From: a virus
Lineage: Duplodnaviria > Caudoviricetes
Strand: one strand, 5' to 3'
DNA length: 64,000 bases
Virus record (IMG/VR): IMGVR_UViG_3300047160_007353
Location: 11,335-75,334 of that record
Below, piece after piece: positions 14,949 to 53,155 of this stretch. The position numbers and the translations under genes were made by a program. The notes under the pieces were generated by a model that was not told where the DNA came from, ran no database searches, and worked only from the letters and a program-made list of their open reading frames with translations. Positions within the stretch are counted from its first letter, which is position 1, and each line of letters starts with the position of its first letter.

Positions 14949-17825
14949 TCAGAAGTCCCATACGTCGGACTCGACCGACGCTCTGATGGCTTTGAACAGG
15001 GCGTCCAGGTCCTCGCCAAAGACGCCGCCGTTCCCCGGGCAATGAATTGTAGGCTCCTTCGGGGGAGCGTACACTTTCGGTTTCTCCTCCACGATCTGGC
15101 GTAGCTCGGCCATCGCTTCCTCGATCGTCTCGTCATCGGATTTCTCCGGAACGACCACGACCGGCGGCCCCGGCGGCGGTTCTTCAACGACGACGGCAGC
15201 TTTCTTCTTGCCGCCAGCTTTGATCTTGGTCCAGTTCCTCTTGATGAGTTCTGGATCGATGCTCTCTCCCAACAGCTTCAACAGCATCAGATCATCCGAT
15301 CCCGAATCGCCCATCGAAGCGATGCCAGAATCTCCTACCCTGCCAGATTCGAGAACCTGTGCCGCCCTATCCTTGTTGCCCATGAGCATGAGCGCTGCGG
15401 CCTGTGCGGTCCCCGCGTAGTAAAGGTAGTCGATCGTGCATTCCCTCGTCTGACCGATTCGTCTAGACCTCCCCTCGAATTGCCTCAGTATGGTCAGAAC
15501 GTACCCCGTCTCGTAGGCAATCAGGTGATTGAAGTTGAACTTGTAATTGCCGTTGCCCGAAGGACAAAACAAGTCACGTCCCGTGGCGATCACGGACGTG
15601 TTCGACAGCATGACCTCGAAGTTCCCCGCATGAGCTTCTAGCCACTGGCTACGCTCGCGAGGGGGAACGTCTCCGGCCCTCAGGACTCCAACTCTGAGGC
15701 CGTGGTCAGTAAGGACCTTCTGCAAACGGCCAAGCACGTCGTGTTTGCCAGTCAGCAGACAGCCAACCCAGGTCTGGTCCCCCATGTCCCTGTACTTGAC
15801 GCACAGGTCAATGAGGGCCTTCTCCTTGGGGAGCACCAGATCCTTGCTGAAGTTTTCCGGCGTCGCAACGCCCACGAAGTTGTTTCTGACGTAATGATTC
15901 GGGATCATCCACCAGCCAACGGCGTGCGAGTCGAGAGGGTGTTCCTTGTCCTTGGGGAACATGGGGATCCAGTCCCAAGGCCGGTCTGGGTAGGCCAGGA
16001 GCGTCCACAGCATAGTCGCAAGCAGCTTGCGGTTCCCGTGCATGACCAGAGCCGCGTTTGCGTCCTTGAGAGTCTGTTCAAGGGATCGGTAGGCCATCTT
16101 GACATCACCAGGAAGCTCGACCGCGACGACGTTGGGGACCAGGTCAGGCAGTCCCTCAACGAAATCGTCCAGCTTCAGGAACGTGGCAGCCCCTATGACC
16201 TGTTCCGAGAACAGAGCCGGCATGATGCCCGGTCTTGGCTTGAACTCGGTCTTGAAGTCGCCGAGCTTGGCTGAACCGGCGGACTTAAGACCGTGCTTCT
16301 TTCCATTGCCCTCGTGCGCACCCACTGTGGTCTTGTAGCGCTTGATCTCATCGAAGCATCCGTACCTCTCGGTCCAGTCTTTGTCCGCATCGCCCCAATC
16401 GAAACCTCGGGCAATGAGGTCGGCGGGCCTGGTCCGCCACAACAACGTGAAGATGCTGGAAGCATACCCGTTGAGGAACGTTCCGGTAAGCCCTACGCAG
16501 TACCGGGTCGCAGCCAGGATCTTCCCGAAGGCGAGCGATTGCTCGCTCTCCTCCGACTTCTGCTGATGCGCCTCATCAACGACGATGTACTTGAAGAGGC
16601 GCTTCATCTTTCTCTGGATCAGAAGCGCGGGCGACCACCACCAGGGTTTGTTGGTGTACTGGTAGAGCGGTTCGCCGCACTTCTTGACCACCCATCGCTT
16701 GCCCGCGTGCTTGACGATGGAGCCAACCCGAGACTTCCTGATTTCGCCAGGGATCTGCGGTCTGGCTCCTGCTTTGTGCTTGGGATTGGGCTCACCAAGA
16801 AGACTGATCCGATCCAGCCCCCCGCTGCAAGTCACGCCCTCATCCGGCAGCTCCTCCAGATAGACAGCTTCGCAGCATTTGTAATTGCTGTCAAGCTTCT
16901 TCAGCGGCATCGGCTTTCCCTTGTCATCCATGATGAAGGTCCCGCAGCGCGGGCAAGCCGCCAGCTTCTCCATGACTGGCTTCTTCTTGGTGCGCCAGCC
17001 GCACTTCTCGTCCCAGACCTTGACGGGCTCTCCTCTCTCGTCCAGGACGTCCTGGTGATCCATCACCCTCCACCTCCCGGTGGCGTTGGTCCTCTCGGCA
17101 CCGGTCAAACCGAACGCTTTCTTCTGGCCAAGCCCCTCAGTCTGAGAGGTGCGCTTGGCCAGGTCCCTTCCAATGATCCACCACTCAGGACCTTCCGGCG
17201 GCTTCCACCGGCCAACGCGATGGGTTACCATGCTGCCGTTGTGGGTTTCCGGACGGCACTCGAACTCGTACTCCTTGTCCTGGAATTCGCGGTTCTCGTC
17301 GAAGTGCGGACCAGGACCGGTAGAAACTGGCGACTCGCGGACAGAAGCCGGCTTGGGACCCTGGATCTTTCGGACCTCTTTGTGTCCAAGGTCCATCAGA
17401 TCCAGGAAGTCCCACCACTTCTTGTAGGCGAAGACCTTCGCGTCGGGGATCGTGGGCTTGATCTCCTGCTCTGCCCACTTGTAGATGAGGTCGTCCGGAC
17501 AGAGGATGATTGCTCTGTACCTTCCCCCGAACTTCTTCATGGCGTGCTCGTGCACGCTCAGGATCGAAGTCAGTGACTTGCCGCACCCTGGCTCCCCGAT
17601 GAAGAACACGGAGTTCTGTTCGTCGAGCGCCTTGCTCATGGCTGCGACCATGTCGGCCTGAGCGGGAAACGGCTTCCGGTTCGGAGGGATGTAGTCGAAC
17701 GGCGGAACTGGGTCCTTCTCGGGGACGTGGAGCGGAGCAAAGCCATCGATGACTTTCCGCGCCAGTGCGTCCCCGAAGGACTCCAGATACCCGCCAAGAT
17801 CCTTGATCTTTGCGAGTTCTTTCAA
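14949..17825 (-). CDS. SNF2-like / SF2 helicase with Cys-rich insertion
   Basis: GEPGCGKS (Walker A), VVDEAH (Walker B), GLTGT (motif III), QFEGRSRRIGQ (motif VI), CPRCG insert. Confidence 0.8.
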   Translation of the reverse strand: MKELAKIKDLGGYLESFGDALARKVIDGFAPLHVPEKDPVPPFDYIPPNRKPFPAQADMVAAMSKALDEQNSVFFIGEPGCGKSLTSILSVHEHAMKKFGGRYRAIILCPDDLIYKWAEQEIKPTIPDAKVFAYKKWWDFLDLMDLGHKEVRKIQGPKPASVRESPVSTGPGPHFDENREFQDKEYEFECRPETHNGSMVTHRVGRWKPPEGPEWWIIGRDLAKRTSQTEGLGQKKAFGLTGAERTNATGRWRVMDHQDVLDERGEPVKVWDEKCGWRTKKKPVMEKLAACPRCGTFIMDDKGKPMPLKKLDSNYKCCEAVYLEELPDEGVTCSGGLDRISLLGEPNPKHKAGARPQIPGEIRKSRVGSIVKHAGKRWVVKKCGEPLYQYTNKPWWWSPALLIQRKMKRLFKYIVVDEAHQQKSEESEQSLAFGKILAATRYCVGLTGTFLNGYASSIFTLLWRTRPADLIARGFDWGDADKDWTERYGCFDEIKRYKTTVGAHEGNGKKHGLKSAGSAKLGDFKTEFKPRPGIMPALFSEQVIGAATFLKLDDFVEGLPDLVPNVVAVELPGDVKMAYRSLEQTLKDANAALVMHGNRKLLATMLWTLLAYPDRPWDWIPMFPKDKEHPLDSHAVGWWMIPNHYVRNNFVGVATPENFSKDLVLPKEKALIDLCVKYRDMGDQTWVGCLLTGKHDVLGRLQKVLTDHGLRVGVLRAGDVPPRERSQWLEAHAGNFEVMLSNTSVIATGRDLFCPSGNGNYKFNFNHLIAYETGYVLTILRQFEGRSRRIGQTRECTIDYLYYAGTAQAAALMLMGNKDRAAQVLESGRVGDSGIASMGDSGSDDLMLLKLLGESIDPELIKRNWTKIKAGGKKKAAVVVEEPPPGPPVVVVPEKSDDETIEEAMAELRQIVEEKPKVYAPPKEPTIHCPGNGGVFGEDLDALFKAIRASVESDVWDF

Positions 17826-18465: not shown

Positions 18466-18677
18466 TCCTCCTGCGGTTCATGAAGGTTGCAGCAGAAGGC
18501 TGCCGTGGTTTCCAGACCCGAAAAGTAACGCTCGACGTCCCACGTCCTGGCGAAGTCGCTCGCGTCCTCTTTGTCGTAGTGGACGATCTTTTCGCAGCGA
18601 CCCCAACCATAGTCAGCGGTCAGCGGCTTGTCCCAGTGCTTGCAATTCCCGCAGCACGGCTCAATGGCTTGGCTCAT
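18462..18677 (-). CDS. small Cys-motif protein
   Basis: CCGNCKHW...GRC...FCC. Confidence 0.45.
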   Translation of the reverse strand: MSQAIEPCCGNCKHWDKPLTADYGWGRCEKIVHYDKEDASDFARTWDVERYFSGLETTAAFCCNLHEPQED

Positions 18678-19419
18678 TGCATTTTGCTCCTGACATGAGT
18701 TCGCTGGCTTGCAGCACTTGCTCTCGTTGAGCGTACTTGAAACACTTCGAGGGATTCCAGAACACACTCCCTCGACTGGGGATCTGCTTTGTCTTCAGCT
18801 CTTCGGCGATCCACAGCCACGAGCGACCGTCCTCGACCCTCATCTTGAGGATCATTCTCATGAGCGCCCGCTCGTCGTGGTCTGGGACCAACCTCTTGAT
18901 GATTCGCCCGCGCTCCTTCTCGGGGCGGACCTTGTAGCCCAAGGGGACGTTGCCAACCATCTCCCCTCTGGCTTTCTTCGATCGCAGGACGTCTCTTGTT
19001 CGCTCCCGGATCATGGCTCTGTCGTACTCGGCGACAGCAGCCAAGATCCTGATCATCAACATGCCCCATTCGGACTGCATGTCGACGGCTTGCCCGAACA
19101 GGTTCGTGATGTGAACGTTCACACCCGCGTTCTTCCAGTTGTCGATCGCGACCGCGCACTCGGAGAATCTCCGGAAGGCCCGATCGATCTTGGTGAACAC
19201 GATGTGGTCACCCCTCCGCAGGTTGCTGGTCATGACTGATCCAGCCTCCCGCTTGACCAGCGGTTTCTCCGAAGAGATCGCTGCGTCGACGTACCACATG
19301 GGGACTTCGTCCTCACCCACCAGCTTGTTGCGGCGGCAGTACGTGAGGATCTGCTCTCTCTGAGTCTCAGGACTCTCCACCTGTTTGTCGGTGGAGGTCC
19401 GGACGTAGCCGTGGATCAT
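18661..19419 (-). CDS. serine recombinase (resolvase catalytic domain plus C-terminal recombinase-like extension)
   Basis: MIHGYVRTSTDKQ (catalytic Ser), DAAISS, TKIDRAFR, AEYDRAMIRERT; TGATG overlap. Confidence 0.85.
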   Translation of the reverse strand: MIHGYVRTSTDKQVESPETQREQILTYCRRNKLVGEDEVPMWYVDAAISSEKPLVKREAGSVMTSNLRRGDHIVFTKIDRAFRRFSECAVAIDNWKNAGVNVHITNLFGQAVDMQSEWGMLMIRILAAVAEYDRAMIRERTRDVLRSKKARGEMVGNVPLGYKVRPEKERGRIIKRLVPDHDERALMRMILKMRVEDGRSWLWIAEELKTKQIPSRGSVFWNPSKCFKYAQREQVLQASELMSGAKCNEPSH

Positions 19420-19766
19420 CAGTCCTCCGGGCACTCTGGGTAGAAGATGAGCGTCGCGGAATCCGGAAACACGTCGCTGGCTCCTCCGTAATCGAAATCC
19501 CGGATGAAGTTGTAGACATTGTCCGGATTCTCGCAGGATGCGATTGGGTAAGTCCCCCATTCTGGGTCGGGTAGCTCAAGATAAGTGACGCAGTTCTCCG
19601 TTCTGACGATCAGTTCGGTGTCTGGATAGACAGCCCGCAGAGCCCTTTTGGTAGCGATAGCCCAGGGGCAATCGAAGCAGTTTTTCTTGACGCCTTCCTT
19701 GATGTCGTCCTCTGTGACCTCAACGTTAAGCCGAATCTCCTTTGGCAGATCAAAGCTCTGATGCAT
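19419..19766 (-). CDS. hypothetical protein, paralog of 20446..20811
   Basis: SFDL...EDDIKEG...CFDCPWAIATKRAL. Confidence 0.55.
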   Translation of the reverse strand: MHQSFDLPKEIRLNVEVTEDDIKEGVKKNCFDCPWAIATKRALRAVYPDTELIVRTENCVTYLELPDPEWGTYPIASCENPDNVYNFIRDFDYGGASDVFPDSATLIFYPECPED

Positions 19767-22149: not shown

Positions 22150-22422
22150 TCAGTCCCATCCTCTCTCGGCCCGATCGGCGCAGCGATCGCACTGGTAGCC
22201 TCGCTGGCGGTCCAGGGGGGTCAAGACGTTCTCGGCACCACAGGTGGGGCAGGGAAGGTTCCGAGGGTTGTCCGGTGTGGCTGCACGCAGCGCACTGCGT
22301 CCGCCCGGGTCTGCGAACCCGACGCCGTCGATCAGGTTCTCGTCGTCGTAGTCGGGCTCGTAGTCGATCTCGTCTCCGTACTCGTCGATGTAGCAGTCGT
22401 CTTCTTCGCTGAAGTAACTCAT
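22150..22422 (-). CDS. small acidic protein with Zn-ribbon
   Basis: D/E/Y-rich N-terminus; CPTC...CDRC. Confidence 0.55.
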   Translation of the reverse strand: MSYFSEEDDCYIDEYGDEIDYEPDYDDENLIDGVGFADPGGRSALRAATPDNPRNLPCPTCGAENVLTPLDRQRGYQCDRCADRAERGWD

Positions 22423-22803
22423 GAAGTTCAGTCCTCGCTGGTCCTGGGAAGGTCGAACTCGTCAGGGATTCTGATCACGATCACTCCTTTCCAATCTGTT
22501 TCCTGATAATGCGGAAGCCGCCGCCGGTCAGCTTGACGCGGTCTGAGTCTCTGTTGTCGAAGTCCCCGCGGAGGACTGCGTCCATGACGTCGAAGCTGTC
22601 TCCGAGGTATGCGATCCTTCGCTCTCGCTGCATTGGCGCGTACCGTTTCCGTTGCTTGATCGGCTTGTCCATCGCATTGTCCTTTCTTTGGTGCAAGAAA
22701 GCAAGACCGTACCGAAGTGATACGGTCCATTAGCGGCCCTGGCGGCAAAGCCAGGGCGGTCCCGCTTGAACCTCAGGACCGGCGCTTGCCCGCTATTCCG
22801 CGA

Positions 22804-25267: not shown

Positions 25268-25287
25268 TGGCTGGCTCTCCGTTTCGC

Positions 25288-25310
25288 TGAAGCCTCAATT
25301 TGAGGTTTCA
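25288..25310. repeat. 23-bp dispersed palindrome, copy 3
   Basis: TGAAGCCTC AATTT GAGGTTTCA; contains the stop of the YkgJ-like gene (...RETSN*). Confidence 0.9.
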
Positions 25311-25741
25311 CGCGCTCCAAAGAAGTAACGCTCTGAAATCTCCCGCAGTTTAGCCCACAATCGCTGGGTCTCGACGTTCGTCATGTAGCGATCGGGTTTG
25401 CACCCATAGGGGCATCGCATGAGGGGATCATCGACCGCGCCCCACAACCTGCAAAGCAGCGGTCTAACGTGATAGACTGAACACGATCCAAGTGATAACA
25501 AGGGACATTGCGTGCATCCTCCCTCGCCTCTCGATTCGGCCATGATCGCCTCATCGGAGGGGAAAACTGGTTCCGATCCCGATCGTTCGGTAATCCGTAA
25601 ACGCTCAATGGGCGCTACCACGGACTCGCTTATATGACACGAGTCCTGGCAGAGCCCTTTGCAGTTCAGAGCAGGCAGCGAATCGTAAAGCTCTTTGAGA
25701 GCCCGTTCCGCTGCCCGCCTGCGCTTGTTCGCCAATCCCAT
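25295..25741 (-). CDS. YkgJ-like cysteine-cluster (Zn/Fe-chelating) protein
   Basis: CKGLCQDSC...CPLL...CSVYHVRPLLCRLWG. Confidence 0.7.
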   Translation of the reverse strand: MGLANKRRRAAERALKELYDSLPALNCKGLCQDSCHISESVVAPIERLRITERSGSEPVFPSDEAIMAESRGEGGCTQCPLLSLGSCSVYHVRPLLCRLWGAVDDPLMRCPYGCKPDRYMTNVETQRLWAKLREISERYFFGARETSN

Positions 25742-25938
25742 CAGTTGCCGTTCCTCCAAGCCCGGAATTCCTTCCGGGCCTGATCCGGGGTTTCGAAGTA
25801 CCAAAGAACCGAGAGCAGAGGTTGTCCGTCCTCTGTCTCTCCCTTGTCCTCGGTGAAGTACCTGCCGTACAGGACATGGCGGCTTGGATCGAACTTCCCG
25901 AACAAGCCCGTCCATCGGATTCGCTCGATATGAGACAT
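25741..25938 (-). CDS. hypothetical phage protein
   Basis: Coupled ORF. Confidence 0.4.
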   Translation of the reverse strand: MSHIERIRWTGLFGKFDPSRHVLYGRYFTEDKGETEDGQPLLSVLWYFETPDQARKEFRAWRNGN

Positions 25939-25943
25939 CGCGG

Positions 25944-26120
25944 TCAGTCCTCCCTCTCGACAGAGGTCACTTCCCAGTAGTCGAACGCGATCATGCCCTC
26001 GTCCGAGTGGCATCCATCGACATAGATGCCCCAGAACACATCAGAAGGGGACAGGCGCACCACCAGGACATGCGAGCCGTTGGCGAGTACGACCTCTTGG
26101 CCAGGGATGAAATCCCACAT
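25944..26120 (-). CDS. small hypothetical protein (58 aa), not in ORF track
   Basis: MWDFIPGQEVVLANG...; GGAGG upstream. Confidence 0.45.
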   Translation of the reverse strand: MWDFIPGQEVVLANGSHVLVVRLSPSDVFWGIYVDGCHSDEGMIAFDYWEVTSVERED

Positions 26121-26142
26121 CGGTCAGTCCTCCATCCGAAGT

Positions 26143-26376: not shown

Positions 26377-26486
26377 AGTATCCTCGCTTTCGTTCTCGAT
26401 CCGGAATCAACAAAGCGCAGAGCCCAACGCTCGCGCCGCTCGCCCCACTCTCACAGGACATGGGGCGGATGGCGGGAGCGTTGTTG

Positions 26487-26708
26487 CTAGCCAAGAGGGA
26501 CGTATCCCATGAGAACGAGTTCGGTCACTCCGCTCTCGTTTGGGATGTCAGCCCACACTTCCGGCCTACCATCTTCGATTTCGATCCCGACTCCATGCCG
26601 CGCCGCATGGCGCTTGAGACGCCGCAAGGCATCGGCCCATGTCCTGTGGTTGGTCCTGTGGGACCTTCCGAATGCCGTTTCCCACGTCACACAGTAGAAT
26701 CGTCGCAT
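26487..26708 (-). CDS. hypothetical phage protein
   Basis: First ORF after the 26.8-kb terminator and repeat gap. Confidence 0.45.
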   Translation of the reverse strand: MRRFYCVTWETAFGRSHRTNHRTWADALRRLKRHAARHGVGIEIEDGRPEVWADIPNESGVTELVLMGYVPLG

Positions 26709-26817
26709 TGGTCACTCGCTTTCGTTCAGAGGGTCCCTGGTAGCTTCCCAGCGAATTGCCGGCAAGCCGCGCTTGTCCCCGCCTGACAGGCTAGCAGGGA
26801 CAGGCGGGGATTGTCAG

Positions 26818-26848
26818 GCGGAGCAGCGGAGCAGCGGAGCAGCGGAGC
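26818..26848. repeat. tandem repeat (GCGGAGCA)x~4
   Basis: Directly visible; intergenic. Confidence 0.85.
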
Positions 26849-26850
26849 GC

Positions 26851-26882
26851 AAAGAGAAACCCCCCGGGTTGCTTCCGGGGGG
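26851..26882 (-). terminator. intrinsic terminator for 26923..27918
   Basis: CCCCCCGG/CCGGGGGG stem followed on the minus strand by GTTTCTCTTT. Confidence 0.7.
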
Positions 26883-26922
26883 CTGAAATCGGCCAGTTTG
26901 TCGGAGGAAGGTTGACCGCCTA

Positions 26923-27918: not shown

Positions 27919-28371
27919 GGTTGCAATCCTCGTGTGTGGGAAGGTTACTGCTACGCGTAGCAGTAACTCCAGCGTACGGACGTTGATCGGCCCCGTCTCC
28001 CGACGAGTTTAGACGACCAACGGCGGTCGGCTGACCCGGCCGCACTGTAATTATCCTGCACTCACTCGCAATGCGTAGTAGTGAACTCGCCGCAACGCCA
28101 TGAGGCGAACCGACTTGCGTCTTACGCACAAAACTTCTCTTGCGCATCGACTTTGTCCTAAGTCGTTGCCACCAAAGCACTTAGCTGCGCCCGCTTGTCC
28201 ATCTTTGTCCAAGGTGGCGAGTCAAGTGGTGCATGTGTACACATCGGCGGGGAGGAACTGGGCTCGCTCCACCTGCAAGCCCTCTGGTCAAATGACGCCA
28301 AGCCGTTGCCAGCCAAAGAGAAAGCGTACGTACACCATGTTCCCTGGTCGACGCCTCACCCAAGAGGCGAT

Positions 28372-28556
28372 GGCAGGGAACTGCCGGCAGGGCACACAGG
28401 CCAGGACGGTGGCCAGGGCACACAGGCCAGGACACGCCGCTAGCCGCCGCTAGCCTGCACCACGACGCCAGGACGCACGCCAGGACGCACGCCAGGACGG
28501 TGGCCAGGGCACACGCCAGGGCGGTGGGGCGACAGGGCAGGGAACTGCCGGCAGGG
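28372..28556. repeat. nested direct/tandem repeat cluster in a long non-coding gap
   Basis: 21-bp repeat at 28372 and 28536; 24-bp repeat at 28400 and 28491; 12-bp unit x3 at 28465-28499. Confidence 0.85.
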
Positions 28557-28828
28557 GGCAAGCCGCCGGTCGGCAAGCCACCCGTGGGGCCGGTCGGCAC
28601 CGAACACAAGGACCGTGCGCACGCACAGGTTCTATATAGTGCGACGGCTGCACCTACTGGACAGGCGACAAGCAAGCTATGCATCCTTCATATCACACTA
28701 GTGTGCATGCATTTTTGAGTCTGATCGGTGGGGAAACGCTGCAACCTGTTGCGCCGCAACGACTTGTGACAAGGACCAGGCCCGGGGGAGGCCCCCCAGC
28801 GGCGGCCGGCTCTAGTAACATGCACCAC

Positions 28829-31875: not shown

Positions 31876-33054
31876 ATGCCAGATCTTCCCCAGGACACTT
31901 CCTCTTCCGCCGCTTCCGCCGGCTTGGCCGAACTTCAGGCTTCGTCCAACGCCATCATGGCTCAGGACTCCATTGCTCAGGGGTCACGCAGCGACGCTGC
32001 TGCTTCTCAGGTCGAAGGCACCCGCGATGTCCAGTTCACCCCCGAGCCCGACTCCGGGATCGCCGCTGGCGCCGTGGGAGGCGCTGGGAGCGCTGGTGCT
32101 TCTGGAGTCGCTCAGCTCCAGCCAGAAAGCGAGTGGGAGTCCGTCCAGGACGTCGCCCGCTCCCTCGGATACCAGTCCAACCAGAACTTTGCCGACGATC
32201 GAGCCTTCCTCCTCCACCTCCTCAATCGCGACCGTGCCACCCAGGAAGCCGATTACTACAGTCAGCTCGGACGGCAGCTCGCCCCGCACTACCAGGGCAT
32301 CCAGAGCTACCTCGGTCAAAGGCAGGCACAGGCTCAGGCTCCGGCCGCGACCCCCGAGTGGGAAGCTCCTGAGTTCGACCCCCGATGGATGGACCTCGTG
32401 CAGCGAGATCCTGGAACGGGAGTCTACCTGGCTCGGCCAGGGGTCAATCCACTGATCGCGGACAAGGTCAATAGCTACGACCAGTGGTTCAGTAAGTACG
32501 GCCACAACCCCCTCGCCGCCGTCCGCCCGATGCTTCAGGCCGAACTCCCCAATATCATCGGCCAGCAGATCCGCCAGGAACTTGCAAGCTTCCGGCGGGA
32601 GCAGACGGTGAACTCCATCGTCGAGCGGAACAGCGAGTGGATGTATCAGCATAACAACGGCCGCCCCGTGATCGGCGTCGGCGGGCAGCTCGTCCCCACG
32701 CCCCAGGGCCTCCGCTACGGCCAGATCGTACAGCAGCTCGAACAGGGTGGGATGAACAACCCGGTGGCCGTGGACCAGATCGCCCGCAACATGCTGTTGG
32801 GGGAGATGGCGATCGCGAGCCAGCAAGGTTCCCATCCCGCCCCGCCTCTTGCACAGCAGAACAACGCCCTCGCCTCTTCGGGCGCCCAACGCAACGTGCT
32901 CCAGAGCCTTCCCCCTCAGCAGAGAGCGACGACTCCCGGAGCAACCGAGCCTGCACAGACCGGCATGTCCTTGCACGACATGCTTCACAGCGCGTTTGAG
33001 TCAGCCGGCTATACCGACGCCGATTTCAGTGACCCCAGTCGTTTCATGAGTTGA
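31876..33054 (+). CDS. putative capsid scaffolding protein
   Basis: Acidic, Q/A-rich, immediately upstream of the capsid gene. Confidence 0.6.
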   Translation: MPDLPQDTSSSAASAGLAELQASSNAIMAQDSIAQGSRSDAAASQVEGTRDVQFTPEPDSGIAAGAVGGAGSAGASGVAQLQPESEWESVQDVARSLGYQSNQNFADDRAFLLHLLNRDRATQEADYYSQLGRQLAPHYQGIQSYLGQRQAQAQAPAATPEWEAPEFDPRWMDLVQRDPGTGVYLARPGVNPLIADKVNSYDQWFSKYGHNPLAAVRPMLQAELPNIIGQQIRQELASFRREQTVNSIVERNSEWMYQHNNGRPVIGVGGQLVPTPQGLRYGQIVQQLEQGGMNNPVAVDQIARNMLLGEMAIASQQGSHPAPPLAQQNNALASSGAQRNVLQSLPPQQRATTPGATEPAQTGMSLHDMLHSAFESAGYTDADFSDPSRFMS

Positions 33055-33067
33055 GGAGTGAACTTCA

Positions 33068-34180
33068 ATGGCAATCCCCTGGAGTAGAGTCCTTAACTCT
33101 ACCATCAAGAATTACATTCGTGAGCGCGAAGTGAACGTGCTCAGGAATCGTAAATTGACCGCGCTCCTGAAGAAGAGAGGTCGTCTCTCCTTCAACTGGA
33201 GCGGGTATAAGATGGACTGGAAGGTCAAGTACCGACGCGTCCGTCTTACTCCGTTTGCTGACGGCGACACCCTGACCTTCGACCGCAAGGACCGGCACAA
33301 GACCGCCGAAGTCGATTGGCGCGGTTATAGCCTCACGGACTCCATGACCAAGGGCGAGTTCCTCCAGAACCGCTCCAAAGAGGCCATCATCAAGTTGTAC
33401 TCAACAATATCTGTCGATCTGATGGATGATGCTGAGGACTTCTTCGGTGAAGAGTTCTACATCAATGGAAACTTGGCTGCGAACGCCAAGCGAATCCATG
33501 GCCTCGAAACCTTCCTGGCGGCCAACTCGGTGGTCGGGAACGGTGCTGGCGCCCCGACCGCGACCTACGCCGGCCTCTCCTGCGTGCCCGGCTTCTACGG
33601 TGGCACCTGGACTGGTGGGACGATCAACGGGACCGCAGTAACGTGGCCCAACGGCTTCGGCGATCCCCAATACGACTTCTGGAGCCCGATCGTCGTGGAC
33701 TACGGCGACACGCTCTTCCCCGGCACCGGCTCCGGCAACCACACGTGGTCGAACAACTGCGTGGAGGCCGTCGCCTTCGGGATCATCAAGAGCAAGAAAT
33801 CCAAGAGCGCCCGCGGCATGCTCGACGTCATCTTCCTGAATGACGAACTCTACCGCGAGTATCTCACCCAGGCCCGTACGTCGCAGCGGATCATGGTCGA
33901 CCGAGGCCAGGCATCGGGCTTGGTTCAGTTGGGATTTCTTGATGTAATTAACCAGGATGGTGTTGATCTGACGTGGGAGTATGGTACCCCGTCGGGCGTT
34001 GGCTACGGCTTCAACATCGACATGATGGAGCTTCGGTCGATGCAGGCTCAGGTGTTCGTGCCGGAAGGCCCCGACTTCGACATCGGCACCAAGAGCTGGC
34101 GGTTCTCGATCGACATGTATGGAAACGTCGTATACAATCCCAAGTTCTTCGTCAAGTTCGCGCAGCTCACAGGTCCCTGA
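33068..34180 (+). CDS. major capsid protein
   Basis: 370 aa, strong codon bias, position after the scaffold, HK97-like composition (AEVDWRGY...NRSKEAIIKL...IHGL). Confidence 0.75.
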   Translation: MAIPWSRVLNSTIKNYIREREVNVLRNRKLTALLKKRGRLSFNWSGYKMDWKVKYRRVRLTPFADGDTLTFDRKDRHKTAEVDWRGYSLTDSMTKGEFLQNRSKEAIIKLYSTISVDLMDDAEDFFGEEFYINGNLAANAKRIHGLETFLAANSVVGNGAGAPTATYAGLSCVPGFYGGTWTGGTINGTAVTWPNGFGDPQYDFWSPIVVDYGDTLFPGTGSGNHTWSNNCVEAVAFGIIKSKKSKSARGMLDVIFLNDELYREYLTQARTSQRIMVDRGQASGLVQLGFLDVINQDGVDLTWEYGTPSGVGYGFNIDMMELRSMQAQVFVPEGPDFDIGTKSWRFSIDMYGNVVYNPKFFVKFAQLTGP

Positions 34181-34195
34181 TCCTAGTGGTTAGCT

Positions 34196-34384
34196 ATGCC
34201 ATACAAGATCAAAGACTCGGGGGGTGGATTCAAGGTAACCAGCCCCAATCACCCCCAGGGCTTCTCCAAGAAGCCGCAAAGCAAGGAGATGGCCATCAAG
34301 CAGATGGTGGCCATCAAGATGCACGACAAGGAGCACGGAGGAGAGAAGCCCGCCAAGAAGGTGGGAGTAAGAAAGGGTAAGTAG
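34196..34384 (+). CDS. small basic hypothetical protein
   Basis: MPYKIKDSGGGFKV...K-rich. Confidence 0.5.
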   Translation: MPYKIKDSGGGFKVTSPNHPQGFSKKPQSKEMAIKQMVAIKMHDKEHGGEKPAKKVGVRKGK

Positions 34385-34388
34385 TCCT

Positions 34389-34754
34389 ATGGCCAAGCGA
34401 GTTGGCGTCAGGAACATGTCGAAGGATGTCGCCACCGGTCACGCGGTGGATGGCTCCTATCGCCACGTCTCGCCCGAGGAGACTCGCGGCCACGATCCCG
34501 ACACGGAGGGCACCGGGACCGAGAAGGCTTACTGCTCGATGTGTGACTGCAAAGGCCACACGTACATGGCTCATATGAACGAGTCCATGAGCGCCGGCGA
34601 CGGCGAAGACAGTGGGTCTGGCGTTGCCAAGGAGCAGAACAAGGCATCCCAGTACGGTTGGGCGAACAACGAATACGAGGGCAGCACCGGTTACTCTGGA
34701 TACAAGCTCCCCGGCGAGCGGGGTAGCAAGTCCGCAGTTCGCATTTTCGGCTAA
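34389..34754 (+). CDS. hypothetical protein
   Basis: ORF in the capsid operon. Confidence 0.5.
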   Translation: MAKRVGVRNMSKDVATGHAVDGSYRHVSPEETRGHDPDTEGTGTEKAYCSMCDCKGHTYMAHMNESMSAGDGEDSGSGVAKEQNKASQYGWANNEYEGSTGYSGYKLPGERGSKSAVRIFG

Positions 34755-34774
34755 TAAGCCGAGGAGCTTTTGCA

Positions 34775-35413
34775 ATGGGTCGTCTACAGGACGCACCGTT
34801 CCCGAGAGGCGGGACCTACTTCAACGGCAACTTCGTGACTGTCCCCACGCCAGATACAAATGAGTTTCTGGGTGGCTTCAATTATGAAGGTAAGGAGTAT
34901 TGGATCGAGGACAATGATTCTCCTGGTGGCGGCTACGGCACCGGGATGTTCGTCAAAGTCCGAGTGGTCCGCAACTCCACCGCCGCCAATATCCTTCCTG
35001 GTCAGCTCGTCCAGCTCGACGCCACCAGCCGCGTGCTCGACAGCGCGACGGTCCTTCCCGGGACCAACGTCAACACCATCATCCGCACCACGGCGGTCTA
35101 CGGCTACCCGGCCGACGAGTACCTTCCCGCGGCTGGCGTGATTTCCGGCGACCTCTTCTACGTGGTCATCGGCGGTCCCTGCCTGATGAAAACCGCTCTC
35201 ACTGGCACGGTCACGTTGGTGATCGATCAGAAGGTCGTGTCGGGCACCATGGCCGGCACCACCTCCGCTGACGCTGGCAACGTGGTTGCTCAGGACCTCA
35301 CCGGCGCGACCGCGACCCTGGGTGCCCAGATCCAGAACGCAGTCGGCCGTGCCATGAGCGCCATGTCCAGCCAGGGGACCGGCCAGCCGATCCTCGTGAA
35401 CGTTGGCGCCTAA
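34775..35413 (+). CDS. putative capsid decoration/cement protein
   Basis: G/T/V/A-rich beta-type protein after the MCP; GAGGAG RBS. Confidence 0.5.
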   Translation: MGRLQDAPFPRGGTYFNGNFVTVPTPDTNEFLGGFNYEGKEYWIEDNDSPGGGYGTGMFVKVRVVRNSTAANILPGQLVQLDATSRVLDSATVLPGTNVNTIIRTTAVYGYPADEYLPAAGVISGDLFYVVIGGPCLMKTALTGTVTLVIDQKVVSGTMAGTTSADAGNVVAQDLTGATATLGAQIQNAVGRAMSAMSSQGTGQPILVNVGA

Positions 35414-35436
35414 CGGCGCGGTTGGTGCCTAACGGC

Positions 35437-35464
35437 TTGACAGGCTGTGGGCGTGAGCTATAAT
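35437..35464 (+). promoter_or_regulatory. consensus sigma-70 promoter
   Basis: TTGACA (35437-42), 16 nt, TATAAT (35459-64). Confidence 0.8.
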
Positions 35465-35469
35465 CAAGA

Positions 35470-35681
35470 TGAAGCGGTCAACGGAATTGCTTGCTCCTTG
35501 GCCGCATGTGCGTCGGCGTGCTTAGGCGTTTCTTTGATCAAGGCAAAGCCCGGTTAGTTTCCACACGAAGCCGCACGCCGGCGCTTTTTAAGACAGTAAA
35601 GTGCAAGTCAGTTAGTTCGGTCAGTCCTCGCGTGGCCCCGTCCCCGAAGGCAAGATGCTTTCGGGGCGGGGTTTTTTCTTT
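35470..35681 (+). ncRNA. candidate structured small RNA or attenuated leader
   Basis: Lies between the consensus promoter and a terminator. Stems at 35474-81/35498-505 and 35510-21/35573-84. No convincing ORF. Confidence 0.55.
35636..35681 (+). terminator. intrinsic terminator
   Basis: CCCCG(T)CCCCGAAGGCA/TGCTTTCGGGGCGGGG stem followed by TTTTTTCTTT. Confidence 0.85.
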
Positions 35682-35799
35682 GTTGTGAGCTAAACTGGAG
35701 TGCAGGTGAGGTGCACACCTGTTCTTCACTTCTCGACAGAGCCCTCCTGCACGGTGCTGACTCTCGTGCAGGAGGGCCTCTTACCCGGAAGCTCACACC

Positions 35800-36834
35800 T
35801 TGGAAACGCGATCCTACAAGCTCGCCGCCTGCCGGTTCCCCGGCAACTCCTCCGAACATCCCGCCTCTGCCGGCTGGTTCGCCACGACCTGGGCCAACAC
35901 ATGGATGAAGGATGACCGGATCTCGGACGTCATCCCCCTCCGTCTGTCCGACACGCCGATCTCGATGTCGAGAAACAACATTGTGTGGGCGGCCCTGGAG
36001 CACGGAGCCGACTACATCCTCATGCTCGACTCGGACATGAAGCCCGACTGCGAGCCAGACGGCAAACCGTTCTGGTCCAGCTCGTGGGACTTCATGATGG
36101 AATATCGAGCGCGCGAAGAGGCGTACGCCAGCAACATGAGGGCGGTTCCCTGGACCGACGACTCAGAATCGATCGAGACTTCGTGCAGGCGGCTCTATCC
36201 CCCGGCCACGATCGCCGCGCCGTATTGCGGCCCTCCGCCGTGGGAGGTCGTCTACATGATGAAATGGGTCCGCGACGAAACGAACTCCCCCACCGACCCC
36301 AGGCCCTACCACCTGGAAATGTTCGACCGCGACCACGCCGCCGACTTCACCGGGATCTTCGAGGTAGCCGCCATGGCCACCGGGCTGATCCTCTATGACG
36401 CCCGGGTCTTCAAGGAGCTTCCGCCGCCCTGGTTCTATTACGAATACGAAGACAAGTTCCACAAGAGGAAGGTGAGCACGGAGGACATCGTCCAGACCCG
36501 CAACGCCAGTCTTCTGGGCTTGCCCCAGTATTGCAACTGGGACTCGTGGGCTGCCCACATCAAGCTGAAGTCTGTGCGCAAGCCGCGCAAACTGGACGTT
36601 TCCGCCGTCCCGAACGCCTTCGCCGATGCGGTCCGCAAGGGAACCAGGGGCAATCACAAGGTCGTGATCGTTGGAGACAAAGAGGACCAGTTCGAGCGTC
36701 CCCGGATCGTACGGCCCGGCTACCCCGACTTCAGCCACCAGGATTCCGGTCTCACCCAGGAGCCCCCGCCAGCCTTCTTTTTCGGGGCCTCGACGGCTAT
36801 TCCTGGGCTAAAACTCCCTGAAACCTCAAATTGA
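35800..36834 (+). CDS. GT-A fold glycosyltransferase-like protein
   Basis: ADYILMLDSDM (DxD), ATGLILYDARVF...PPPWF, TEDI, DSWAAH. Confidence 0.65.
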   Translation: METRSYKLAACRFPGNSSEHPASAGWFATTWANTWMKDDRISDVIPLRLSDTPISMSRNNIVWAALEHGADYILMLDSDMKPDCEPDGKPFWSSSWDFMMEYRAREEAYASNMRAVPWTDDSESIETSCRRLYPPATIAAPYCGPPPWEVVYMMKWVRDETNSPTDPRPYHLEMFDRDHAADFTGIFEVAAMATGLILYDARVFKELPPPWFYYEYEDKFHKRKVSTEDIVQTRNASLLGLPQYCNWDSWAAHIKLKSVRKPRKLDVSAVPNAFADAVRKGTRGNHKVVIVGDKEDQFERPRIVRPGYPDFSHQDSGLTQEPPPAFFFGASTAIPGLKLPETSN

Positions 36835-36841
36835 GGCTTCA
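36819..36841. repeat. 23-bp dispersed palindrome, copy 5
   Basis: TGAAACCTC AAATT GAGGCTTCA; contains the GT stop (...PETSN*). Confidence 0.9.
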
Positions 36842-36881
36842 CGCGCAGCAGTGATCTTTACGATCACGCACAGCGGGGATC

Positions 36882-37190
36882 TTGACGATATGGACTAAGG
36901 TGCCTATGATTCAAATGTCCGAACGATGTTGCTTCGGACGAGCAAGCAAAGACGAGCACCAAATGGAGTCCTGGCGAATGCGTACGAAAGAGATCAAGCA
37001 CCACGGCTGCGGGGACCACGAATTCACAGACGAGGAGATGGACTTCCTTCGGGCGATCGAGAATTTCAAGCGGGAATCGGGAATCCGGTTTCCCACATGG
37101 ACGCAGGCGCTCCGATTGCTGAAGCGCCTAGGTTACCAGAGGGTCACTTTCAAGGGCGGCGACGTACCAGAGCTTCCCGAGTGCGCGTGA
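36882..37190 (+). CDS. small conserved hypothetical protein (recalled as Planctomycete-type)
   Basis: EFTDEEMDFLRAIENFKRESGIRFPTWTQALRLLKRLGY. Confidence 0.55.
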   Translation: MTIWTKVPMIQMSERCCFGRASKDEHQMESWRMRTKEIKHHGCGDHEFTDEEMDFLRAIENFKRESGIRFPTWTQALRLLKRLGYQRVTFKGGDVPELPECA

Positions 37191-38260: not shown

Positions 38261-39028
38261 CTACCAAGACGGCGGTCCGTGCTGATGGCCCTTCTTTGCC
38301 GGGGCAGGCCCGAATCTCTGGGTCGTCCTGCCGTTCCAGTTCGCGCCGCGGGGAGAAACCTGGCTCTCCAGATGGAGGCAGACCACCTCTGGCAGCAGGA
38401 TTCGCTTCCGGCGGTCCCATTGCAGGGAGAACTGGATGTCCGTGCGAGCCGCGTCCCCGTGCTCGATTGGGTACTTCCGGACGTGGTAGGCGTCCTGGAT
38501 GATCTGGGAGCCGTGGAAGAGCTGGAAAGCGCCGATGGGCGTGTAGCCGTGGACGCTTGACACGAGGCGGCTCATCATCGGGTACTCGGGGTGGAACCAG
38601 TGTCCCATCTCGTGGAGGTGGTTGTTCCATGCCCCGAGGTGCTTCTTGAGGGCCGTCCATTTGTCCCACCCCACGACCCTCTGCCGGTCCGCTCCGTAGA
38701 TGCAGGACGTGTCCAGATGAGCCCACTCCAGCATGTTGCGAAGCTGGCTCGGAAGGACGATATCCGCGTCGACGTGCAAGATCCAGTCCTGACCGCCGAT
38801 GGAATCCAGGACCCGGTTGATGAGCCGGGCCTTGTTGAACTTTCCGCCCCGCTTGTGGTCGTCCGACATCACATGACGGAGGTTGTGCTTGCGGCAGACC
38901 GCCCGAGTTTCCTCGTCGTCCTCGCTGGTGACGACCACCAGCTCGTCCACAAGCGGGAGATTGAACGGGAGCGTCTCCTTGAGGAAGTCGCCATAGCCGA
39001 CACAGACCGTGATGGCTTCCAGTTTCAT
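38261..39028 (-). CDS. glycosyltransferase family 2-like protein
   Basis: AITVCVGYGDFL...VVVTS, FNKARLIN, WILHVDADIVLP (DxD). Confidence 0.75.
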   Translation of the reverse strand: MKLEAITVCVGYGDFLKETLPFNLPLVDELVVVTSEDDEETRAVCRKHNLRHVMSDDHKRGGKFNKARLINRVLDSIGGQDWILHVDADIVLPSQLRNMLEWAHLDTSCIYGADRQRVVGWDKWTALKKHLGAWNNHLHEMGHWFHPEYPMMSRLVSSVHGYTPIGAFQLFHGSQIIQDAYHVRKYPIEHGDAARTDIQFSLQWDRRKRILLPEVVCLHLESQVSPRGANWNGRTTQRFGPAPAKKGHQHGPPSW

Positions 39029-40995: not shown

Positions 40996-41235
40996 TTATC
41001 CCTTCATTTTTTGAGCCACAACCAGAGCAATAAGCAGAGGAGCAAGAACCACGAGCACTCCAGCCAGAAGCCCGTCATAAAACCCCCGCTTATAGAGCGT
41101 ATCCAGGGCGTCCGCGAGAGGGCCAAAGAAGGCAATGACGCTAGTCACGGTTAAAACCACCCTTGTAAGCAAAATCCTGTAGTTTTTCTTTCGCGGTCGC
41201 GAGGGATCGGCGCAAGAGCATCTCGTCGAGTCCAT
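40996..41235 (-). CDS. small two-TM membrane protein (holin-like)
   Basis: Two hydrophobic stretches; true start probably near 41173. Confidence 0.45.
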   Translation of the reverse strand: MDSTRCSCADPSRPRKKNYRILLTRVVLTVTSVIAFFGPLADALDTLYKRGFYDGLLAGVLVVLAPLLIALVVAQKMKG

Positions 41236-41866
41236 ACTCGGCGGCCTTGAACTTCAAAGCCGTCTTTTCCTCGCCGTACATGCCGAGATTGCAACCCAGG
41301 GCGAGGCATTCGTGGAGGTCGAGCTTCTGAAGGAACTTCCCTATGACCTCGTTGGACTCCTCCGCCTCTTCCTTTCGAATCATCAGCTCCAGAGGGTCGA
41401 GTTCTGTCTCGTCCACATAGAGGCCGTTGATTTCCTCGTGGTCGCGGGCCGCACGGAGGAGGTTTTCCAGGTTCTCCCTGGCCACTTCGATGCCAGCCGC
41501 CGCGGCCTTGAAGGTCCCCGCGGTGTTCGCCTGGAGTTTGACGCATCGGGAGCGCTCGAACAGCTCCGCCATGCGGTTCCGGATGATGGTCTGAGCGAAG
41601 CAGAGGTAGCTCGACTTCGATGAGTCGTACTTGCGGTCCCGTTCGCTCAACTCGATCCACATTTCGAGGAGTAGGTCCTCGGGATCGAACGTGACTTTGC
41701 CCTCGGGAGAGAGCTGGCGATAGAAGCGAAGAGCCTCGCGGACCAGGAACCGGCCGATAGAGGCGATGCGACGTGAAAAGTCAGCAGCCTGCGCGTCCTG
41801 TCGAGACAGGGGATCGCACAGGCTCGCAAAGTATTCGAGCAGCGGACGTTCAGATTCTTTGGGCAT
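41141..41866 (-). CDS. divergent sigma-70-like transcription factor
   Basis: PEDLLLEMWIEL...KYDSSKSSYLCFAQTIIRN (region 2-like) and a C-terminal HTH-like segment. Confidence 0.55.
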   Translation of the reverse strand: MPKESERPLLEYFASLCDPLSRQDAQAADFSRRIASIGRFLVREALRFYRQLSPEGKVTFDPEDLLLEMWIELSERDRKYDSSKSSYLCFAQTIIRNRMAELFERSRCVKLQANTAGTFKAAAAGIEVARENLENLLRAARDHEEINGLYVDETELDPLELMIRKEEAEESNEVIGKFLQKLDLHECLALGCNLGMYGEEKTALKFKAAEYGLDEMLLRRSLATAKEKLQDFAYKGGFNRD

Positions 41867-50247: not shown

Positions 50248-50281
50248 AGAAGCATAGGTCCCTTCGGAAGCGGGAATCTCG

Positions 50282-50304
50282 TGAAACCTCAAAACGAGGC
50301 TTCA
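50282..50304. repeat. 23-bp dispersed palindrome, copy 6
   Basis: TGAAACCTC AAAAC GAGGCTTCA, just upstream of the ParB gene. Confidence 0.9.
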
Positions 50305-50884
50305 GCGAAAATCGGCCTGTAGTCGTGTGAAAGAGAGATCATGTGAGGGATGAGAAACAGAAGAAAAGCCCTGGAAAAATCCCGTATAAGTGTTCTCTTA
50401 TGGACGTAACTCCTTTCAGGATAGGGGGTTGGAATCTTCATCTGAGTTTGTCTATCTTTCTGTTTGGAGGAATGGTTATAATGACATTTAACAACAGCTC
50501 CCTTCCTTAAACCGTAGCGGGCAGGATGACCGCGGAGGGGGAGGGGGCTGTAGGCCCCCCATCCGTCTCGTAGCCAGCGCGAGCGCAGAAGGCAGCCTGA
50601 GGTGGGCGAGTACGCCTGGACACCGTCGGAGGTGAGGAAGGACAACGTCCTGACGAGCCGACAAAGCTAAGCGTTCGGAGCGGAGCGTAGAACGCGTGCG
50701 CAGACATGGATGTCCTTTGCTCGTGAGATTCAGACTTCGTCGTACAGACGAAGCTGAAGCGAACACTATTGAGCGCGCTTGTCTTTTTGTTCTAGGAAGA
50801 AGAGAAGAAACGACAAGGGGGAGTTAAGGGAAATTGCGCTTGCTTGTTAACGCAGTTTCCGGATAAGCAAACGTTTGTTCCTTC

Positions 50885-50945
50885 ACCGTTCCTTCACCGT
50901 TCTGAGAACGTTCTGGGAACGGTACTGGAACGGTGCGCACCGTTC
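50885..50945. repeat. helically phased heptamer array (iteron-like)
   Basis: ACCGTTC/GAACGGT at 50885, 50896, 50917, 50928 and 50939; GAACGTTC at 50906. Confidence 0.75.
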
Positions 50946-50973
50946 AGCACCATTTTATGCGATTCAAGCGTCG

Positions 50974-52054: not shown

Positions 52055-53155
52055 TCAGAAAGGGATGTCGTCCACCGGGGTCTCGGGGACCGCCGTCGTC
52101 TCCTTGGCCGCATCGGCGATCATTTTTTCGACCTTGGCCTTGCAATTCTTGATCCACTTGACGTCGGTGCAGGCCCGAAGGCTTTCCATGACCTGGCCGC
52201 GCTTTCCCTTGCCGTCCGCGACAGAAGAGGCGATTTCACCCAGGGCCGCGATGACCTCTCCGTCCTCTGGACGTCTTCCGTTCTTGCGTTGCAGCAGAGC
52301 CGAGGTGGCCGCTGCGAGGGCCGACTTCGTGGCCATGAGGTCGATGCCCGCCGCATCCTCCTCCTCCGACACCTTAGGCGGCTCTTCCTTCTGGATCGCC
52401 GGCCCGAACTCACCTCCGTAACTGGCGAGGGTCTTGATGAAATCGACGGTCCTGGTCAGGCACTCCTGAAGGAACTCGGCTGACCACTGATCGACCTGCC
52501 AGGGCTGGCCGTTCCTCTTGGCGAAGTCGGCCATCTTCTGGACGATGGGGAACTTGAACATCTCCTCCATCTTCTTGCCCCAGGCATACGCCGCCTTGGA
52601 GCCGTGCTTGCCCCACGGCGGCTGAATGCCGAAGGCTTCCCTTCCTTCTCGTCTGTCAACCTCGGGAGTTCTGGCTTCGGTCGTCTTGACCGGTGGGCCG
52701 CCCTGGCTGCCGAAGACAGGAATCCCGGAAGCGGGACATCCGAACTCCTCCGAGATGAAGCTCGGCATCCCCTCCTGGTAGAGGTCACGTCCGATCCCAA
52801 AGCAAGCCGCGCACGCCTTGAACGCGTTCGAGCACGCCGTCTTGTAACTGGCATCGGCCGTGCCCATGTCGTCGTTCGGCCCTCCGCACCAGCTCCGCTC
52901 TACCCGGATCGGGTAACCGTTCTCGACGTCGGGAGCCATGACGGAAATGGAACAAATGACGCCCCGATCGGAAGGGACGAACTTCAGGTCCCAGCTATGC
53001 GGACCGGCCACCTCATCAAGGCGATTCATGATCGCCCTTGGTCTGAGGTAGGTGAAGTTCTTGCCCCGCGGCCCCGGGCGCTCCTCGTAGCTGTCACGAG
53101 GAAACGGCGCCATGAGGCGGGACCAGAACTCTTTCTGCGCTTCATTCATTGACAT
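52055..53155 (-). CDS. Rad52/Rad22-like single-strand annealing protein
   Basis: YLRPRAIMNRLDEV.G..SW, KTACSNAFKACAACFGIGRDLY. Confidence 0.8.
   Translation of the reverse strand: MSMNEAQKEFWSRLMAPFPRDSYEERPGPRGKNFTYLRPRAIMNRLDEVAGPHSWDLKFVPSDRGVICSISVMAPDVENGYPIRVERSWCGGPNDDMGTADASYKTACSNAFKACAACFGIGRDLYQEGMPSFISEEFGCPASGIPVFGSQGGPPVKTTEARTPEVDRREGREAFGIQPPWGKHGSKAAYAWGKKMEEMFKFPIVQKMADFAKRNGQPWQVDQWSAEFLQECLTRTVDFIKTLASYGGEFGPAIQKEEPPKVSEEEDAAGIDLMATKSALAAATSALLQRKNGRRPEDGEVIAALGEIASSVADGKGKRGQVMESLRACTDVKWIKNCKAKVEKMIADAAKETTAVPETPVDDIPF

Follow-up and report, generated by a model that had tools for sequence, protein, structure and literature searches.

A promoter-to-terminator RNA unit behind the capsid operon of a probable planctomycete phage, with predicted pairing to early genes

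The RNA unit that follows the capsid operon of this phage is probably, judged from its sequence, a well-formed orphan sRNA gene, and the kind of regulator it would represent is already known. What is new here is that its linker carries a seed perfectly complementary to the Shine-Dalgarno (SD)-to-start regions of three small early genes. The unit lies in an IMG/VR record of 75,334 bp that is rated complete (IMGVR_UViG_3300047160_007353), and the window analyzed herein is the 64,000-nucleotide stretch formed by bases 11335-75334 of that record. We consider positions 35437-35681 of the window to be, with good probability, a real non-coding transcription unit, because the promoter is unique, the terminator is strong, there is no credible ORF, the predicted structure is strand-specific, and the unit is absent from the closest relative. 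The first-pass annotation had proposed a small RNA driven by a host sigma factor; the stand-alone non-coding unit and its host-type promoter held up, but the specific roles suggested for it (antitoxin, decoy, or attenuator) did not.

Promoter, folding, and coding potential of the unit

A sigma-70-type promoter with the perfect pattern TTGACA-16-TATAAT (12/12) was present on the + strand at 35437-35464, as first read from the letters, giving an inferred start at ~35471. On both strands of the 75,334-bp genome, it was the sole match of at least 11/12, the next best being four sites of 10/12, and in intergenic regions facing a gene only two other promoter sites reached even 9/12. According to a composition-based estimate, a perfect promoter is expected ~0.004 times per genome. 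The perfect TTGACA/TATAAT pattern was found in 3 copies in ~28 Mb (three planctomycete genomes) versus 0 in controls, and all 3 copies had a 16-nt spacer; one drives a tRNA gene pair, and each of the other two drives a long, conserved leader that precedes an HTH gene. The excess over controls, the spacer, and the tRNA-driving copy indicate that the promoter of the RNA unit is very likely a strong one in the probable host clade.

Such an arrangement was seen in two planctomycete genomes, from 1501 on the - strand of L090 and on the + strand of L091, where a perfect TTGACA-16-TATAAT is followed by a ~240-nt leader and then by an excisionase-type HTH gene (MKTVFTTGEAAKICKVSQQTI...). The leader is conserved at least across its first ~70 nt, and an Rfam gathering scan of it was negative; it may be a structured leader or an sRNA of unknown family.

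The duplicated GCCTAACGGC described upstream of the promoter was confirmed; it is part of a longer 16-nt direct repeat, GTTGGYGCCTAACGGC, with copies at 35402 and 35421 on the + strand (35402-35436; 15/16, spacing 19). The first copy includes the stop codon of p212, the last gene of the capsid operon, and the second adjoins the -35 hexamer, with no further copy elsewhere in the window. Candidate roles for the repeat are a duplication scar or a regulator site. Between the p212 stop codon and the RNA promoter there was no terminator, and the capsid mRNA should therefore carry the RNA sequence as its 3' UTR.

At the sequence level, the predicted RNA runs from ~35471 to 35677-35681, and its ~209 nt, bounded by the promoter and a Rho-independent terminator, fall within the sRNA size range of 50-300 nt. 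In stem-loop 1 (35474-35505, + strand), a closing stem of 8 bp is joined by 3 further bp. Stem-loop 2 (35510-35584, + strand, with U5 to 35589) has a 12-bp closing stem and a branched interior with a CTTTG/CAAAG hairpin, so that both annotated stems were recovered; together with its U5, it may be a partial first terminator. The linker that follows (35590-35634, + strand) is mostly unpaired, with unpaired probabilities mostly of 0.3-1.0, and its seed UCGGUCAGUCCUCGC at 35617-35631 is largely unpaired in the ensemble. The unit ends in an intrinsic terminator (35635-35681, + strand) as strong as had been described, in which a hairpin of -32.2 kcal/mol (35635-35671) is followed by six U (35672-35677) and then CUUU. 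Both the minimum-energy and the centroid folds consist of independent hairpins plus a single-stranded linker. Against shuffles, the whole unit folded with z = -3.15 and the 5' module by itself with z = -2.8; the fold of the + strand was 12.6 kcal/mol more stable than that of the - strand, a difference to be expected if G-U pairs contribute.

The 18-codon ATG ORF at 35469 (MKRSTELL...) reads as reported. Each ORF inside the unit either has 36 aa at most or continues past the terminator, and none looks protein-like; no credible ORF is predicted in the unit. The ATG adjoins the expected start site, which would suit a leaderless micro-protein or a leader peptide. However, its A is the fifth base after the -10 hexamer, and established spacing puts +1 at ~35470-35472, cutting the codon; moreover, the ORF is without an SD and passes through stem-loop 1 into stem 2, and there is no attenuation-type alternative fold. 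A coding function of this ORF is thus highly improbable.

Several known RNA classes were compared with the unit. ARAGORN found neither a tRNA nor a tmRNA in it, in agreement with the earlier statement that it is not a tRNA, and the Rfam scan proposed as a check returned no family match, only chance miRNA/lncRNA matches at E up to 10. A 6S-like RNA was rejected: no Rfam 6S family appeared at E up to 10, and the separate hairpins do not form a rod with a central bubble from pairing of the 5' and 3' halves. The suggested attenuator controlling the glycosyltransferase found no support, given the lack of antiterminator pairing (ddG of 27 kcal/mol with the 3' arm blocked) and of any Rfam match; likewise, for a riboswitch-type attenuator, the 5' arm of the terminator found no strong partner and Rfam gave no known aptamer or leader family. 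For the suggested antitoxin, we found neither a repeat array nor a toxin-like ORF on either strand. A type I toxin-antitoxin system was rejected since neither strand holds a hydrophobic ORF, and a ToxI-like or CRISPR-repeat array since there are no tandem repeats. The proposed CRISPR/defence decoy drew no evidence from BLAST against three planctomycete genomes, which gave scattered short matches only.

The capsid region, the cargo slot, and the gene p344

The unit stands in a + strand island (31876-37190) that comprises p392, the major capsid protein (MCP), p62, p121, p212, the RNA unit, p344, and p70. The MCP (33068-34180, + strand) matches phrog_9953, major head protein, and more than 40 related loci keep the synteny of MCP and p212 (34775-35413, + strand). 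Metagenomes contain hundreds of relatives of the capsid protein. Among the named genomes with such a protein, most belong to Planctomycetota (the Singulisphaera sp. GP187 chromosome and two Planctomycetales MAGs), in addition to one Opitutaceae MAG and one Terriglobia MAG, and relatives are found as prophages integrated into chromosomes of planctomycetes. Neither MCP and p212 by tblastn nor the RNA unit by blastn had a match in the GenBank phage collection. Considering that the named carriers are mostly Planctomycetota, a planctomycete host and a temperate lifestyle are likely for this phage; the latter is also made plausible by the serine recombinase that the phage family encodes.

Other features of the window were recorded. 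A phage sigma-like protein at 41141-41866 (- strand) has a weak Sigma70_r2 match (E 1e-4), just under the cut-off, and a clear GT2 glycosyltransferase lies at 38261-39028 (- strand), convergent to the capsid/p344 block. The 23-bp near-palindrome TGAAACCTCAAATCGAGGCTTCA occurs at 8 window sites with at most 3 mismatches (2253, 17847, 25288, 31773, 36819, 50282, 53193, and 56008), versus 0 expected. Most copies are intergenic; two are in divergent gaps (31773, upstream of the capsid operon, and 53193), one overlaps the end of p344, and the RNA unit holds none. The set could be dispersed operators of a master regulator.

The order MCP-p212-gap-p344 is widely conserved in relatives. In the nearest locus with both flanking genes (L019, capsid protein ~85% identical), p212, a terminator, and p344 follow each other within about 65-75 bp and the RNA unit is absent, which supports the first-pass view that the unit was inserted after the capsid operon. 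Compared with that locus, the present phage has as extras a promoter, ~165 nt of structured RNA, and a 120-nt structured 5' UTR of p344. A terminator right after p212 is common in relatives, there without the RNA and without a promoter, and the RNA thus probably uses the ancestral terminator of the operon.

In other relatives, the slot after p212 holds different genes. A distant relative (L013:6785-7005) has three tRNA genes (Met, Thr, and His) after the p212 homologue, and L040 probably holds the same three tRNAs, with match coordinates identical to those of L013. A small protein takes the slot in L002 and L017, driven by a TTGACT-16-TAGAAT or TTGACT-16-CATAAT promoter, and further relatives have various protein genes there. 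Because of these tRNAs, promoter-driven small proteins, and other genes, the slot reads as a cargo (moron) site, in which the cargo of the present phage is non-coding. The small protein also occurs here, as p70 (36978-37190, + strand), a homologue of that of L017, behind TTGACG-17-TATGAT at 36882, the second-best intergenic promoter of the genome (10/12). This small protein family was seen in three phages, directly after the p212 homologue in L002 (7311-7738) and L017 (6918-7430) and at 36882-37190 in the window, with a conserved C-terminal half ('FPT...L..(A/L)..LGY') and a sigma-70-like promoter upstream. It had no Pfam match and may be a lysogeny-expressed regulator.

Phage morons are promoter- and terminator-flanked inserts between conserved late genes. 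The RNA unit resembles them: it brings a promoter and a terminator of its own, its two neighbours are conserved genes of the structural region that adjoin each other in L019, this nearest relative lacks it, and other relatives have other cargo at that position. Unlike in usual morons, the cargo here is RNA and not protein, and the unit, with no credible ORF, offers no protein that would benefit a lysogen. Accessory loci of phages are treated in PMC7067206.

Homologues of the RNA were sought in several sets, which left out the contigs of the closest capsid homologues (MCP 82-92% identical). In 73 related loci, blastn and nhmmer found no homologue of the unit. A covariance model built from the single sequence (stems 1-2) and run against 49 loci had its best foreign match at E = 0.24, in a terminator-like hairpin of locus L062. 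With BLAST, only chance matches of 17-29 nt turned up, both in 5 related genomes or records and in 401 genomes of Planctomycetota, and two exact-pattern scans of IMG/VR found no copy of the unit. Within the window, a 14-nt identity between stem 1 (35494-35507) and 52100-52113 was noted in a paired region (E 0.05), probably by chance.

An orphan unit with no homologue in the searched sets might be a remnant without function, in which a promoter and a terminator are left over from a decayed moron or recombination scar and the stems are meaningless. The 19-bp tandem duplication at the 5' border, which suggests a recombination event, fits such an origin, as does the promoter-driven protein gene that relatives have in the slot. 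Yet decay would not leave a 12/12 promoter, a flawless terminator, strand-specific folding, and a seed together. In addition, the moron protein of the relatives has an intact homologue at 36978-37190 and has left no trace in the unit, and a decayed copy of that protein was rejected on this ground. We therefore regard a remnant as quite improbable.

The same anatomy would also suit a prophage-expressed non-coding moron that acts on the host, by sequestering a host sRNA or protein (as a sponge or decoy) or by regulating host mRNAs. In favor of this are the moron-like layout in a cargo slot, the host-type promoter, unlike the rest of the phage, the prophage relatives in planctomycete chromosomes, and the plausibility that the serine recombinase lends to a temperate lifestyle. 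Nevertheless, the RNA has no similarity to any sequence in the 401 Planctomycetota genomes, and we judge a host-directed RNA to be unlikely.

The gene downstream, p344 (35800-36834, + strand), encodes a GT-A-fold glycosyltransferase with a DxD motif invariant in the family alignment. The matches of its predicted fold (pLDDT 63) are almost exclusively GT-A glycosyltransferases, with 41 matches at E of at most 0.001, and Pfam gave weak matches only. The 5' UTR of p344 (35675-35806, + strand) is itself structured (z = -4.1). A long-range stem of 35675-35691 with 35790-35806 encloses a 13-bp perfect hairpin (35741-35777) and covers the TTG start at 35800, which is thereby buried by pairing with the bases just after the U-tract of the terminator. 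In this model, the buried start suggests that p344 expression is low and dependent on read-through.

This layout, with a promoter, ~200 nt, a terminator, and a co-oriented gene 120 nt downstream, fits a lambda PR'-6S-tR'-like gate, or terminated leader, in which the strong constitutive promoter would serve p344 and whatever lies beyond, the terminator would be passed only with a phage factor, and the short RNA would be a by-product. Lying 330 bp upstream of p344 in the same orientation, a promoter of this strength could equally well belong to that gene, for which no other promoter was recognized and whose 5' UTR is strongly structured. By analogy with StxS, a PR'-tR' transcript that doubles as an sRNA (PMC7547250), such a by-product may also have gained an sRNA function. 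However, the unit follows the capsid operon, and only p344 comes before the next promoter (10/12, of a small gene) and the convergent block. Relatives keep the terminator without any promoter, and there is no TAnnnT pause-type (-10-like) element at 35471-35500 (+1 to +30). Searches of the genome at E up to 1 detected neither of the Q-type antiterminator families PF03589 and PF06530; these are weak negatives, and divergent antiterminators may be present. Overall, a gate for p344 appears unlikely.

Complementarity of the linker to early genes

A self-search of the genome revealed that the linker at 35617-35631 is identical to the + strand at 26120-26132, 25941-25952, 22428-22438, and 19419-19427. 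These positions lie in the early gene block of the - strand, so the RNA is complementary to the mRNAs, and each complementary site spans the region from the SD to, or near, the start codon. The first predicted target is p58 (25944-26120, - strand), with 13 nt of perfect complementarity in its SD-to-start region GGAGGACUGACCGAUG at 26120-26132; the second is p65 (25741-25938, - strand), with 12 nt in its SD region GGAGGACUGACCGCGAUG at 25941-25952. The third, p90 (22150-22422, - strand), has an 11-nt perfect match in its SD region at 22428-22438 and encodes an acidic N-terminus and a zinc ribbon. The serine recombinase (18661-19419, - strand) is a weaker candidate, with 9 nt in its SD-to-start region at 19419-19427. 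Target prediction within the phage, which had been proposed as a check, thus led to the ribosome-binding regions of p58, p65, and p90.

The genes p58 and p65 lie in a small operon, p77-p58-p65, with large non-coding gaps on both sides (25268-25740 and 26377-26922). These belong to four large gaps of 473-910 bp without a predicted gene, the others being 27919-28828 and 50248-50973; no sigma-70-like promoter of at least 9/12 was found in 25268-25740, 26377-26922, or 27919-28828.

We compared the RNA with all 92 predicted ribosome-binding regions, using 4,000-5,000 dinucleotide shuffles and random genomic segments as references. Three ribosome-binding regions matched at 11 nt or more, with P of 0.0002-0.0005 against the shuffles and 0.0003 against the random genomic segments; as the match was noticed before testing, the hypothesis is post hoc. 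The 13-mer match alone gave P of 0.004-0.008. Two of the three targets share a 13-nt motif and are not independent, and with the redundant p65 site removed, P was 0.007. The reversed and reverse-complement controls yielded nothing above 9 nt. A general RNAduplex test on the linker gave P of ~0.02, and as the RNAduplex and cofold energies were noisy they lend weak support; in cofolding, most predicted contacts fell in the linker. A 10-nt match between the terminator loop and the ribosome-binding region of the helicase gene (14949-17825) was left as probable chance. The earlier suggestion of a regulator is accordingly favored as far as the unusual seed against the ribosome-binding sites of three phage early genes is concerned (P 0.0002-0.007); its regulatory effect is a prediction. 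Three related host-clade genomes were searched for an Hfq gene and none was found, which is compatible with long perfect seeds.

A proposed base-pairing sRNA and its relation to known regulators

The reading we prefer, tentatively and at somewhat less than an even chance, is that the RNA is a base-pairing sRNA driven by a host sigma factor, that it blocks the translation of early genes, and that it has its terminator in common with the capsid mRNA. This caution reflects that the match was noticed before it was tested and that the energy-based tests were weaker. The host housekeeping sigma factor would start transcription at ~35471 from the consensus promoter, and transcription would stop at the intrinsic terminator, which would also end the mRNA of the capsid operon, so that the same RNA sequence would be the 3' UTR of the late capsid transcript. 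The two 5' stem-loops and the terminator hairpin may be stabilizing or scaffold elements. The unpaired linker seed (35617-35631) would pair with the SD-to-start regions of p58, p65, and p90, and perhaps of the serine recombinase, and such pairing would block ribosome binding. The targets would thereby be silenced in the lysogen and/or once late transcription floods the cell. A more speculative extension, which we find rather doubtful, is that in an Hfq-less planctomycete host the constitutive sRNA and the 3' UTR of the massively transcribed late capsid mRNA, with the same anti-SD seed, both shut the early genes; this switch, for lysogeny maintenance or for the early-to-late transition, would consist of RNA only and would have arrived as a non-coding moron.

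Parts of this layout are found in known systems. The lambda '6S' RNA is a 194-nt PR' transcript. StxS is the PR'-tR' short transcript of Shiga-toxin lambdoid phages (PMC7547250). The present unit resembles both in having a constitutive host-sigma promoter in the late region of a phage and an intrinsic terminator at most ~200 nt on, and it resembles StxS in giving a short RNA that pairs with phage and host mRNAs, although the pairing here is predicted. StxS, however, lies ahead of the late operon and needs Q antitermination and Hfq, whereas the unit lies behind the capsid operon, no Q family was detected in its genome, no Hfq was found in related host genomes, and the two have no sequence similarity.

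P1/P7 c4 and P22 sar are immunity antisense RNAs of temperate phages, which act on early genes (of the antirepressor operon) by pairing at the ribosome-binding region; they are encoded beside their targets or antisense to them and arise by processing of longer transcripts. The likeness is that of a small phage RNA that pairs with the ribosome-binding region of early genes and keeps them silent, as is predicted here. Unlike c4 and sar, the present RNA is encoded at a distance of ~9-13 kb from the genes it is predicted to target, in a unit with a promoter and a terminator of its own. DapZ and MicL are Type I 3'-UTR-derived sRNAs, which are chromosomal, Hfq-dependent, and enterobacterial. They share with the unit a promoter at the end of the upstream gene and a terminator common with the upstream mRNA, so that the sRNA is a 3' UTR as well. 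Their promoter is inside the coding sequence, whereas the one here is just after the stop codon, and the unit looks inserted, whereas the DapZ/MicL type evolved in place.

To our knowledge, phage-encoded regulatory RNAs have been described for a few model hosts only, and for no phage of Planctomycetota. If expressed, the unit would be a compact case of a non-coding moron, of an sRNA whose terminator is common to the capsid mRNA, and of chaperone-independent early gene silencing via a long seed against ribosome-binding sites. It would also mark p58, p65, and p90 as small early proteins that the phage needs kept off, and which would therefore be candidates for switch or anti-defence functions.
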